Positions 34,176 to 36,850 are shown, counted from the first letter of the stretch. The stretch is DNA of 64,000 nt from Candidatus Woesearchaeota archaeon (GCA_016784165.1 JADHVD010000006.1:74-64073); one strand, 5' to 3'. Made by a program: numbers and translations. The notes: generated by a model from the letters alone, not told the origin.

Positions 34176-35507
34176 TCAGAGTTCCATCTTTTTAATAAAT
34201 CCAAATATAATTAATACAACCACTAAAAGCAGTAATAAAACCAAGCTAAATACAATCAAAAAAGGAGTCATGTTTTCAAACTCAATTTCTTCACTTTCAG
34301 TTATTTCTGCATTTCCAGAAACTGGTTGAACAATCACATTAGCTGCAATATTAGCCATATCTAAATGCTGTTGAACAAGTAAATCAATCCCTTCAACTAC
34401 AGCACTTTCACAACTAACATTAAGATAAACAACCTCTTGTTCAGTGTCACTACCATAATCTGCTTTAACAGTGATTGGAAAAATTCCCCCAACTAAAGCT
34501 TCAACATAATAACTCTTCTCAAACATATTATCTTCATTTTTATAGTTACTGTCTAATTCAATATTTTCAAAAACACTGAATCCCAACTCATCACTATACA
34601 ACAAAAGAGAAACATCTTCATCTTTTTTCCCAATATTCACTAATTCAACATCTAATTTAGCTGTATCACCACATTCAACCATACTATCAATATCGCTAAA
34701 AAGCAAAAGCTCATGGGTTTGTTTATCTAATTCAACCTCAAACTCAAGATTTTGTTCATAATTCACCCCAAAATCATCTTCTCCATTTAATTCAATACTC
34801 AATTCATAATTTTTCTCTTTCAATTGTAAAGGAATCTCAAACTCAATCTCAATTTCTTCTTCTTTATCTGCAGAAATAGAAAGCTCTTCAACCTCTAATT
34901 CAATATCACCTCCATTATCAATATCTCTAAGCACAACTCTCAACTCGACATTTTCCATCTCAACATCAGTATCTTTATCAAACAAATTCTTAATATCAAA
35001 TTTCAGTTTCACAATAGAACCAGGTCTAACGTCTTTAATCGTACCCCCAGTTTCATCTACATTTTTATCTTTATGTCCATCAACATATGCTTTTAAATTA
35101 TCTATCTTTAACATTACTGGAATCGTCGTCCCATCCCCATAACTCAAAACCAATAAATCACCATCATTTACTTCATAACTGCTTAATCCAACCATAGAAT
35201 ATTCTAATTCACCATTATCTGCAGTATAAAACGCCCAATACTCCCCATCATATTCACATCCACCACCAACAGCAGCTTCAGTTCCAACACCACCTATTTT
35301 ACACAACATATATCCCCAACCAGGGTATTCATTCCAAAAAGCACTAAACCCGCTTTTTTCTAATAATTCATACCCACTAGACCCTTCATCAACATCCAAG
35401 CATTCACTTTCTATCTTATCTGGAAATTCTACAACCACGCAAACTTCTGCTGCAACCCCTAACCCAACTAAAACTAAAATCATCATCACCCAAATTATCT
35501 GTTTCAT
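34176..35507 (-). CDS. DUF4430 (cobalamin-binding-like) domain fused to S-layer-like Ig modules, with C-terminal TM anchor
   Basis: Signal peptide, GYELLEK...MLCKIGG...YWAFY...VGLSSYEVNDGDLLVLSYG, then a module shared with 25552-28374. Confidence 0.8.
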   Translation of the reverse strand: MKQIIWVMMILVLVGLGVAAEVCVVVEFPDKIESECLDVDEGSSGYELLEKSGFSAFWNEYPGWGYMLCKIGGVGTEAAVGGGCEYDGEYWAFYTADNGELEYSMVGLSSYEVNDGDLLVLSYGDGTTIPVMLKIDNLKAYVDGHKDKNVDETGGTIKDVRPGSIVKLKFDIKNLFDKDTDVEMENVELRVVLRDIDNGGDIELEVEELSISADKEEEIEIEFEIPLQLKEKNYELSIELNGEDDFGVNYEQNLEFEVELDKQTHELLLFSDIDSMVECGDTAKLDVELVNIGKKDEDVSLLLYSDELGFSVFENIELDSNYKNEDNMFEKSYYVEALVGGIFPITVKADYGSDTEQEVVYLNVSCESAVVEGIDLLVQQHLDMANIAANVIVQPVSGNAEITESEEIEFENMTPFLIVFSLVLLLLLVVVLIIFGFIKKMEL

Positions 35508-36229
35508 TCTTTTTCCCCCTCGCCAATTTTACTTTTAATTTCATAAATATTTTCACTTTCAGTTTTATTTTTATTTTTATTTTTCAAAATCTTGATCATA
35601 TCTTTACACATTTTTTTTTCATTAAATCCTCCTTTTTCTTCAACAAAAGTTTTAGCTTTTCCTAAACCTAAAGAAAAAATAACATTAGAAACCAAATGTA
35701 CTAATGTAAAAGGTAAAGCTGTAAAAAATATCGCAAATATACTAAAAGGCATAAACATCAAAGTGCCAAAATTGACAATGATTTCATAAGCGAGTGTTGC
35801 TATTCCTGCAACAATCATAATCTCAAACCATTTAGCTTTCTTCCTCAAATATCCCCCAAAAAAGCCAGCCACCCCAAAACCTAATGCCTGAAAAATTGTC
35901 CAAGGACCTTGACCTCCAAACATAAAAAAGTTAGAAACATATAAAGCACCTGCCCCAGTCAAAAATCCTTTTTTCTTTCCAAATAACCACCCAGCCAATA
36001 TTGCAAAAAAAGTAATTGGTTCAGCACTTGGTACTGATTGCATGGGAATTCTCAACAACGCCCCACCAAACATCAACCCAATCAAAACAAGATACTCCTT
36101 CATCTTAAGTAAATCTAACTGTTTTAATAAAAGATGTAAAGCTAACCTCTCTTTACCTTTCAATTTTGTAGATACTTTATTCTCTTTCTTTAATTTCTCT
36201 TTCTCTTTTTGGACAACTTTTTGTTTCAT
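35504..36229 (-). CDS. cbrT: ECF transporter S-component, CbrT-like (cobalamin)
   Basis: LLRIPMQSVPSAEPIT...SNFFMFGGQGPWTIFQ...HLVSN; about 6 TM helices; likely start 36229 or 36244 rather than 36346. Confidence 0.8.
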   Translation of the reverse strand: MKQKVVQKEKEKLKKENKVSTKLKGKERLALHLLLKQLDLLKMKEYLVLIGLMFGGALLRIPMQSVPSAEPITFFAILAGWLFGKKKGFLTGAGALYVSNFFMFGGQGPWTIFQALGFGVAGFFGGYLRKKAKWFEIMIVAGIATLAYEIIVNFGTLMFMPFSIFAIFFTALPFTLVHLVSNVIFSLGLGKAKTFVEEKGGFNEKKMCKDMIKILKNKNKNKTESENIYEIKSKIGEGEKE

Positions 36230-36230
36230 T

Positions 36231-36698
36231 TTAAGCCATATCATACAATAACGCCAAATAAGCTTTATTAAAAATCTTAAACCAATCAAACCGCTCTTTA
36301 ACATCAGGAGACATTTGAAAAAGTTCTGATCTCGATAACATATCATTAAATTTTTTAGTTTGTATCACTTCATCAACCTCTTCATAAGATATGGATTCCT
36401 GAATTTCTATTTCTTTTTCTTGTTTTCTTTCTTCATTAACAGATTCATAAGAAAGATAAGGATTTTCTTTTGCTTCACCACCCAAATAAGAAAACAATTC
36501 AGAATAATCTATTTGTTTATCAATTAAATTAGTAGAATAATCAAATTTTATTTTACCCTCATCTGATTGAGTAGAATCATCATCCTCAATTTTAGCATCA
36601 ATGGTTTCTTTTTTATTTTCCCCTTTTCGCTCTAGTTCAATTGCCTGAAGCACTTCCACCAAAAGAGTATTTTCTTTCTTTATCAAAATATCACCCAA
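36231..36698 (-). CDS. Acidic hypothetical protein, first gene after the riboswitch
   Basis: 155 aa; TTG start at 36698 or 36686, each with a GGTGA SD-like site; stop coupled to cbrT. Confidence 0.7.
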   Translation of the reverse strand: MGDILIKKENTLLVEVLQAIELERKGENKKETIDAKIEDDDSTQSDEGKIKFDYSTNLIDKQIDYSELFSYLGGEAKENPYLSYESVNEERKQEKEIEIQESISYEEVDEVIQTKKFNDMLSRSELFQMSPDVKERFDWFKIFNKAYLALLYDMA

Positions 36699-36811
36699 TC
36701 ACCGCCTTGAGAAAGAATAAATTCCCTTGCTCGAGGTTTTATGTCCATAAGTTTTCCGACTCTAACGGTTGCGGCACAGTCAAGGGTTTTCACCTTAGTT
36801 TCCTTAATAGA
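36699..36811 (-). ncRNA. Cobalamin riboswitch, compact class II-like
   Basis: P1 UCUA/UGGA; P3 UAAG/CUUA; J3/4 GAAACU; P4 AAGG-UGAAAAC-CCUU; ACUGUGCCGCAA; P6 CCG-UUAGAGU-CGG; linker CAUAAAAC; upstream of B12 uptake genes. Confidence 0.88.
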
Positions 36812-36830
36812 TAAAATATAAAAAAACAGA

Positions 36831-36850
36831 ATAAATATATAAAACTTTCC
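36831..36850 (-). promoter_or_regulatory. BRE/TATA promoter of the riboswitch operon
   Basis: GGAAAGTTTTATATATTTAT; predicted TSS near 36812, the 5' end of the aptamer. Confidence 0.65.

Follow-up and report, generated by a model that had tools for sequence, protein, structure and literature searches.

A 64,000-nucleotide (nt) stretch of DNA from a Candidatus Woesearchaeota archaeon (GCA_016784165.1, JADHVD010000006.1:74-64073; hereafter the window, in whose numbering positions are given) very probably encodes a genuine cobalamin (vitamin B12) riboswitch, a true representative of an established class that was not expected in this domain of life. The class has so far been described from bacteria and marine metagenomes. 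The explanation that best fits the data, at a probability of roughly three in four, is a class II cobalamin switch on the minus strand (as are all window features located below) that has its own archaeal promoter, heads a three-gene operon and acts as a toggle with a translational OFF output.

When the whole window was compared by cmscan with the 4227 families of Rfam 15, the sole match above gathering score was to RF01689 (AdoCbl-II or AdoCbl-variant, clan CL00101, the class II cobalamin aptamer), at 36741-36819 (46.0 bits, gathering score 36.5 bits, E 6.4e-8, model positions 1-81 of 81). RF01689 is present as a single copy in the organism's own assembly (865 kb in 26 contigs, 86% complete; E 2.1e-10), and RF00174, the classic long cobalamin model, has zero matches in that genome; a preliminary description of the locus, made from the sequence alone, had proposed a search with both models, and the compact one alone recognises the RNA. 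Part of the outermost helix of the match (36819-36814/36746-36741) is probably upstream of the transcription start, and the aptamer as probably transcribed occupies 36744-36811, with standard pairs throughout P1 and P3-P6. Only a bulged U36807 separates P1 (UCUA 36811-36808 / UGGA 36747-36744) from P3 (UAAG 36806-36803 / CUUA 36751-36748), the P2 arm being absent. J3/4 (GAAAC 36802-36798) leads into P4 (UAAGG 36797-36793 / CCUUG 36785-36781; 36797-36781 with its loop, L4), which is followed by P5 (UG 36778-36777 / CA 36771-36770, closing L5, UGCCG 36776-36772), P6 (CCG 36768-36766 / CGG 36758-36756; 36768-36756 with L6) and J6/3 (AAAA 36755-36752). P6 is a stem of 3 base pairs (bp) with a 7-nt loop and no P7-P11 extension, and L4 (UGAAAAC) and L6 (UUAGAGU) are 7 nt each. 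The minus-strand sequence quoted in the preliminary description (36699-36811) is identical to the window letter for letter, and its statements that the helices of the cobalamin core all close and that both loops measure 7 nt were borne out. Its view of the P6 sequence as a compensatory swap was not, because CCG/CGG is the RF01689 consensus itself (CgG/CcG) and is invariant in 31/31 archaeal copies.

Related RNAs occur in other members of the Woesearchaeales. RF01689 matched 14/201 genomes sampled from the same order (10 above the cut-off), and in a phylum-wide genome sample all of the matches (12/12) fell within that order. A lineage-specific model of aptamer plus expression platform (R1), built from an alignment of 18 copies that included ~45 nt downstream (A2), retrieved the RNA from 29/401 genomes of the order (~7%), spread over 25/258 genera and ~16 families; where loci were instead anchored on the transporter gene described below, ~9/39 carried it. 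A model-based alignment of 31 archaeal copies (A3) was compared with 500 shuffles and with slid structures. Paired cells amounted to 87.4%, versus 72.6% in shuffles, and the covariation score was 0.309, versus 0.095 in shuffles (0/500 as high) and at most 0.112 in the slid controls. Changes on both sides were seen in 7/8 pairs of P1/P3 and 4/4 pairs of P4, while the P5 pair was GC in 27 copies and CG in 4; P6, being invariant, is uninformative for covariation. The signal in P1/P3, P4 and P5 is thus far above the controls. Such compensatory changes, in the helices and in the kissing loop described next, across 25 genera, argue for purifying selection on the RNA.

Directly after P1, all copies have a short hairpin, P13, whose loop (L13) is complementary to L5. 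In the window this P13/L13 hairpin of the expression platform lies at 36725-36736 (P13, CCU 36736-36734 / AGG 36727-36725; L13, CGAGCA 36733-36728), and the kissing pairs are G36772-C36733, C36773-G36732, C36774-G36730, G36775-C36729 and U36776-A36728, with A36731 bulged. With this one bulged nt, 84% of cells are paired; a contiguous register gave 61% and was rejected. The four paired columns of A3 read CG in 23 copies and GC in 5 (47-115), CG in 28 (48-114), CG in 30 (49-112) and GC in 30 (50-111). The five G:C cases, from four families, comprise the window and its genus-mate together with three genomes from other families, in which L5 UGCCG is matched by L13 CG(A/U)GCA; three further copies carry matching variants, L5 ACGCG with CGCG or ACGUG with CACG. 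Since this pairing was outside the structure of the model, the signal is independent of how the sequences were fitted to the alignment. P13 itself also covaries (GGAU/GUCC, CCU/AGG, UCAU/AUGA).

A conserved pyrimidine-rich arm further downstream (..GGAUUUCUC in most copies; UUCUUUCUC.AGG, 36717-36705, in the window) can pair with the 3′ strand of P13 and the 3′ part of L13. The resulting competing, or 'anti-P13', hairpin spans 36705-36736 (CCU.GAG..AGGGAA-UUUA-UUCUUUCUC.AGG), and its outer stem accounts for the conserved AAGG at 36708-36705. Folding energies in the window are −1.8 kcal/mol for P13 and −7.5 kcal/mol for the competing hairpin, so that P13 should need a ligand-stabilised kissing loop in order to form. 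An alignment-free test in relatives found the P13 3′ strand paired downstream in the minimum-free-energy (MFE) fold of 21/28 sequences (mean z −1.05), a result whose t-test overstates the support because the sequences are mutually related. Taken as a whole, a kissing loop coupled to a P13/anti-P13 toggle is the probable design of the platform.

The promoter is of archaeal type and lies at 36836-36850, with a purine-rich GGAAAG resembling a B recognition element (BRE; 36850-36845) and the TATA box TTTATATA (36843-36836). Archaeal TATA boxes are usually centred near −26/−27, and this spacing, applied to the TTTATATA box, predicts a transcription start near 36812, at most a few nt from where the aptamer begins. 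P1 (UCUA/UGGA) would therefore lie inside the RNA and the Rfam outer helix (36819-36814) outside it. The arrangement recurs: counting matches of at least 7/8 to the octamer TTTAWATA, with distance measured upstream of the GGAAA junction, a box was present 33-42 nt upstream in 21/31 loci, other 10-nt bins holding 0-5 loci. The preliminary description had likewise placed a BRE/TATA promoter so that the start coincides with the aptamer 5′ end, and the conserved spacing agrees with it, the start itself being a prediction.

How such an RNA might control expression can be set out in three steps. Bound corrinoid would stabilise the kissing loop between L5 (UGCCG 36776-36772) and L13 (CGAGCA 36733-36728) and lock the weak 3-bp P13, as the covariation suggests; without ligand, by the energy model, the 3′ strand of L13/P13 would pair with the arm at 36717-36705 to give the stabler hairpin; and ligand, in freeing that arm, would lower translation initiation at UUG 36686. 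The device would then work as an OFF switch of the kind known from bacterial B12 uptake regulons; according to the folding model, the arm, once freed, binds the start codon together with codons 2-5. Specifically, the ligand-bound model fold of the window joins UUG 36686-36684 to C36709-A36707, and AAAGAA 36681-36676 to UUCUUU 36717-36712. An OFF switch on translation is favoured because three relatives are built in the way that is classical for class II OFF switches, with the same gene families under their control: locus L089 has its AUG within the 3′ strand of P13, in L088 a Shine-Dalgarno (SD) sequence overlaps that strand, and in L078 the AUG comes 3 nt past P13. All three parts of this logic are seen in the copy in front of a ribonucleotide reductase (RNR) gene at L084, where the duplex between arm and start is specific (−15.4 kcal/mol, z −2.9).

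Several results weigh against this explanation. Over 24 loci, accessibility of the start site (−12 to +6) was equal in ligand-free and ligand-bound folds (0.55 vs 0.56, p 0.83). The freed arm showed no preference for its own start region over non-cognate or shuffled targets (mean z +0.5), the window's own arm-to-start duplex amounting to −9.5 kcal/mol (z −0.35). An SD-like motif was present in 8/24 loci only, and the unconstrained MFE fold of the window leader sequesters the start even without ligand. The window's own alternative hairpin was no more stable than shuffles (z +0.79), and covariation of the anti-P13 hairpin in fixed columns equalled that of shuffles, because indels shift its 3′ arm out of register. 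At the level of genes, no match to EcfT/CbiQ (PF02361) was found in the window's own 86%-complete genome (G000), and loci L092 and L093, from a relative 93% identical in gene 1, keep the switch and have lost the two genes expected to serve B12 uptake (the CbrT-like and transcobalamin-like genes), with a 61-amino-acid (aa) open reading frame (ORF) in their place. Translational OFF as the output is about as likely as not.

The alternative that survives best, which we consider unlikely, is a genuine switch with some other output. It might be an ON switch, in which ligand melts a hairpin whose end is ~10 nt short of SD-less start codons; or else RNA stability or archaeal (FttA/oligo-U) transcription termination might be under its control. 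The conserved UUUCUC arm of the ligand-free hairpin lies at most 18 nt from the AUG in 12/24 loci, 16/24 loci have no SD, and both sequestration folding tests were negative, all of which would suit such an output. However, an oligo-U terminator following the platform was considered and rejected, T-runs of at least 5 occurring there in only 4/24 loci, and the relatives with SD or AUG inside P13/L13, which must be OFF switches, control the same gene families. Moreover, in bacterial B12 regulons the B12 uptake genes and B12-independent RNR are classically repressed by B12, which also runs counter to an ON switch or other output.

Direct masking of an SD by the ligand-bound RNA is far less probable. 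In the preliminary description, L5 UGCC paired with GGCG (36706-36703) inside an SD-like GGCGGUGA (36699-36706), and CAAGGG competed for the 3′ strand of P4 (CCCUUG). Both complementarities are indeed present in the window, and GGCA, which is also complementary to UGCC, stands at the same place in a same-genus genome (L082). Yet the covarying partner of L5 at a fixed position in all 31 sequences (31/31) is L13, directly after P1, and the CAAGG in question consists of the last part of L13 and the 3′ strand of P13, its complementarity to P4 being lost in relatives with a different P4. The conserved AAGG, moreover, is already explained by the competing hairpin. Nor is GGCGGUGA itself conserved: its counterpart is GGCGAUGA in L092/L093 and GGCAAUUA in L082, its GGUGA (36703-36699) being mutated in the former and absent from the latter, whereas the SD and start downstream are conserved, and it is probably not a functional SD. 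Translation, the level of control proposed in the preliminary description, accordingly stays the likeliest output; the pairing proposed for it does not stand.

The likely ribosome-binding site and start occupy 36684-36696, with an SD GGGUGAU (36696-36690) and UUG 36686-36684. This SD (GGGUGAU/AGGUGAG) is kept in L092, L093 and L082. UUG 36686 aligns with a GUG in L082 at the same distance from the SD, and the same-genus protein P0122 is called from that GUG; the start chosen by gene callers, TTG 36698 (155 aa), aligns with a TTA in L082. Within 36683-36703 an SD-like sequence is duplicated in tandem (GGUGAUU-GGGUGAU), its first copy being mutated in close relatives. Together with GUG 36694, the first copy would head a three-codon ORF (GUG AUA UUU UGA) whose stop overlaps UUG 36686. 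A different arrangement is seen just past the aptamer in L085/L086 (family f129), where GAGGUG lies in or adjoins L13 and a Lys-rich open frame follows after 6-7 nt, beginning with AUU or AUC; judged from sequence, these may be non-canonical start codons.

The host is archaeal by several measures. Genes beside the switch locus code for an archaeal-type prolyl-tRNA synthetase (ProRS), the beta subunit of the proteasome and FttA (aCPSF1), a KH/beta-CASP termination factor. Where the downstream membrane protein has homologues, the titles of the loci name Candidatus Woesearchaeota, Nanoarchaeota or Pacearchaeota. Among the best 120 homologues of the transporter gene, essentially all that are named bear archaeal names; one, P0095, is labelled 'Bacteroidota bacterium'. 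P0095 belongs to the archaeal DUF6580 clade (55% identity) and lies on a 13.8-kb contig, and its label reflects either mis-binning or a transfer. The gene order ProRS-riboswitch-operon-proteasome-FttA is repeated in the same-genus genome, and ProRS-switch-proteasome-FttA synteny was also found in two independent Logan assemblies (L092, L093) of the 93%-identical relative. Archaeal flanks, archaeal homologue names and synteny in three independent assemblies make contamination or a chimeric contig very unlikely, and the DPANN host named in the preliminary description, in keeping also with an 865-kb genome, was confirmed. The reading under which there is no working archaeal element, the RNA being a chance match, a decaying relic of acquired bacterial DNA or a contaminant, can draw on the definition of RF01689 from bacterial and marine-metagenome sequences, on the Bacteroidota label and on the two uptake genes lost in close relatives, but it is largely refuted already by the genome-wide match (E 2e-10), the compensatory changes in helices and kissing loop, the archaeal TATA boxes at fixed spacing, the archaeal genes on both sides in syntenic order, and a switch that is 100% identical in relatives without the uptake genes.

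Cobalamin class II (Cbl-II) RNAs are defined by the lack of a P2 arm and of a long P6 extension, and the L5-L13 kissing loop to the expression platform is common to all cobalamin classes (PMC7367189). In Cbl-IIa, selective for hydroxocobalamin (HyCbl) and methylcobalamin (MeCbl), J1/3 is bulged into a T-loop of 5 nt, which makes contact with J6/3 and with the ligand (PMC7367189, PMC6158498); in Cbl-IIb, selective for adenosylcobalamin (AdoCbl), J1/3 is short and either mismatched or paired, and P6 is extended by a short hairpin (PMC7367189). Some Cbl-II members, such as a class IIb example from Enterococcus faecalis, have no J1/3 (PMC6158498). By the definitions of PMC7367189, the window RNA classifies on its sequence as Cbl-II. 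Its subclass features are mixed: P6 is IIa-like, with a plain loop, and J1/3 is IIb-like, a 1-nt bulge (U36807) when P1 is drawn compatibly with the promoter and 7 nt only with the Rfam outer helix. Most relatives have a continuous or once-mismatched P1-P3, and a P6 hairpin is found only in the same-genus copy (L082:1501-1623; also L011/L022), where a 14-nt insertion in L6 folds as a small hairpin (AAAUCCCAUUUAGGGAA) that extends P6, the rest of the aptamer being near-identical to the window's. The preliminary description was therefore right in assigning a compact class II element; the MeCbl/HyCbl selectivity that it added is not readable from a sequence with such mixed IIa/IIb features.

The closest known counterpart is env8HyCbl (class IIa, RF01689; PDB 4FRN/4FRG as cited in PMC7367189), which matches the same covariance model above cut-off. 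It shares the four-way junction of P3-P6, the GGAAA junction, the 7-nt L4 T-loop, the loop-capped P6 and the lack of P2, together with a regulatory L5-L13 kissing loop and a P13 immediately after P1. The window RNA differs in its archaeal host and TATA promoter, in starting at the aptamer and in its J1/3 (a 1-nt bulge where env8HyCbl has a T-loop of 5 nt); for the window and most of its relatives, neither SD nor start lies in P13/L13, and a competing hairpin intervenes between P13 and a start codon 40-50 nt downstream. Class IIb switches, compared by sequence only, resemble it in their small P6 and in a J1/3 that is short, whether mismatched or paired (L082 even has the L6 hairpin), whereas the plain-loop P6 and the best Rfam family, RF01689, set the window RNA apart from them. 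The fluoride riboswitch of Thermococcus kodakarensis is likewise a bacterial-type class in an archaeal mRNA leader and is presumed to act on translation, although its ligand, fold and gene set differ.

The three genes of the operon are tightly coupled. Gene 1 (36231-36686; 36698 and 155 aa according to the gene callers) encodes a 151-aa Lys/Glu-rich protein of no known family, with no Pfam or NCBIfam match and only two close homologues in the homologue search; similar Lys/Glu-rich proteins of 150-175 aa are encoded directly behind the switch in other genomes. One genome (G050, contig C3; L081, also L005/L015/L043) has two switch copies ~780 nt apart on the same strand, one in front of a Lys/Glu-rich gene of 175 aa, the other in front of a CbrT-like gene, each with its own TATA-like box. 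Gene 2 (35504-36229), which begins 1 nt past the stop of gene 1, encodes a 241-aa CbrT-like S-component of the energy-coupling factor (ECF) type with a match to Pfam DUF6580 (E 1e-8), and a profile of 21 homologues had 6FNP_A (ECF-CbrT) as its sole PDB match (E 0.0034). 6FNP is the ECF-CbrT vitamin B12 transporter of Lactobacillus delbrueckii (PMC5997447). The CbrT-like gene noted downstream in the preliminary description is thereby substantiated; it is termed CbrT-like, and not an ECF-CbrT system, because the S-component is present without an EcfT match, and it may work alone or with an unrecognised partner.

Gene 3 (34176-35507), joined to gene 2 by an ATGA overlap, encodes a secreted protein of 443 aa that is anchored at its C terminus and carries at its N terminus a transcobalamin-beta-like (DUF4430-like) domain. 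The AlphaFold2 model of this domain has a predicted local distance difference test score (pLDDT) of 81; 16/17 of its best Foldseek matches in the PDB are transcobalamin, haptocorrin or intrinsic factor (best E 3.5e-5), and its template modelling (TM) score against the isolated transcobalamin beta domain is 0.79. Comparison by hhalign with DUF4430 proteins from the same operon in relatives gave a probability of 85% (E 6e-6). The C-terminal half (34176-34700) resembles PACE-CTERM/S-layer-type proteins (NF033506, E 9e-12, below cut-off). From the model, gene 3 appears to be a B12-binding head on a cell-surface stalk, the stalk being suggested because the S-layer-like C-terminal part ends in a hydrophobic anchor. 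Searches of the PDB, NCBIfam and Pfam with single sequences of the three operon proteins were uninformative save for DUF6580, so that profiles and a fold search were needed. Bacterial uptake genes under B12 switches (ECF-CbrT, DUF4430) offer a parallel, in that a distant CbrT relative and transcobalamin-beta-like/DUF4430 proteins stand behind a B12 riboswitch in both; the window operon differs in that its genome yielded no EcfT/EcfA module, the binding domain stands at the head of an S-layer-like surface protein of 443 aa, and an additional 151-aa gene comes first. Judged by these similarities, the operon most likely captures and imports corrinoids.

In L092 (1315-2214) and L093 (441-1340), ProRS, the 155-aa gene, the proteasome beta subunit and FttA are kept, and riboswitch and platform are 100% identical to the window's through CUCAAGGCG; with both uptake genes missing, the switch persists there on gene 1 alone. 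Elsewhere the switch fronts genes for an ATP-cone/class I RNR small subunit (NrdB), CobA/BtuR (twice), a DUF4346 protein and a 93-aa membrane protein. In six genomes (L061, L063, L064, L065, L077 and L078) the first ORF after the switch encodes a protein of at least 500 aa, of a family without Pfam matches whose N-terminal part conserves the motif G(S/N)GFER(W/F); being riboswitch-controlled in all six, it is a candidate for a B12-related function.

Previous surveys list for Archaea only thiamine pyrophosphate (TPP), fluoride, a few flavin mononucleotide (FMN), Mg2+-I and guanidine-II riboswitches, and no cobalamin class (McCown et al. 2017; PMC5473149), and, according to PMC8241225, the fluoride switch is the only natural archaeal riboswitch shown experimentally. 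A 2019 review, as far as it is quoted in PMC8281238, lists no cobalamin class for Archaea. In the literature searched, no published archaeal cobalamin riboswitch was found, although automatic Rfam annotations of these metagenome-assembled genomes may exist; nor was a paper found that links Woesearchaeota with riboswitches, or a DPANN paper describing one. A cobalamin riboswitch family maintained by selection in DPANN archaea adds another domain of life to the range of the riboswitch class that is second commonest in bacteria. It supplies natural variants by the dozen (in some, P13 includes the SD or AUG; most have no SD), with which to ask how archaeal ribosomes or RNA polymerase read ligand-induced folds. 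It also serves as a guilt-by-association marker for B12 functions in poorly annotated DPANN genomes, pointing to the DUF6580/CbrT-like transporter, to transcobalamin-fold surface proteins and to two families without known function (the proteins of at least 500 aa and those of 150-175 aa), and it bears on cofactor dependence in small-genome episymbiotic archaea.

A bolder and rather doubtful proposal is that the Woesearchaeales have adapted the class II switch to their own expression machinery, with a minimal aptamer that begins at the transcription start and a toggle working on SD-less leadered mRNAs. It is conceivable, at the same low confidence, that the device acts by neither SD masking nor intrinsic termination, and, equally tentatively, that it governs a lineage-wide B12 regulon comprising uptake, CobA, RNR and several unknown proteins. 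If so, it would give a first handle on how a riboswitch couples to archaeal gene expression, in hosts that depend on others for cofactors.

Elsewhere in the window's own genome, contig C9 (L091:133-2894) carries a 553-aa ORF in which a B12-binding domain (PF02310) is fused to a methylaspartate-mutase-E-like domain. It is the genome's only PF02310 match and adjoins a gene of the octopine-dehydrogenase family. Because this B12-binding/mutase-E-like fusion protein is encoded, the genome would appear to have a use for B12.

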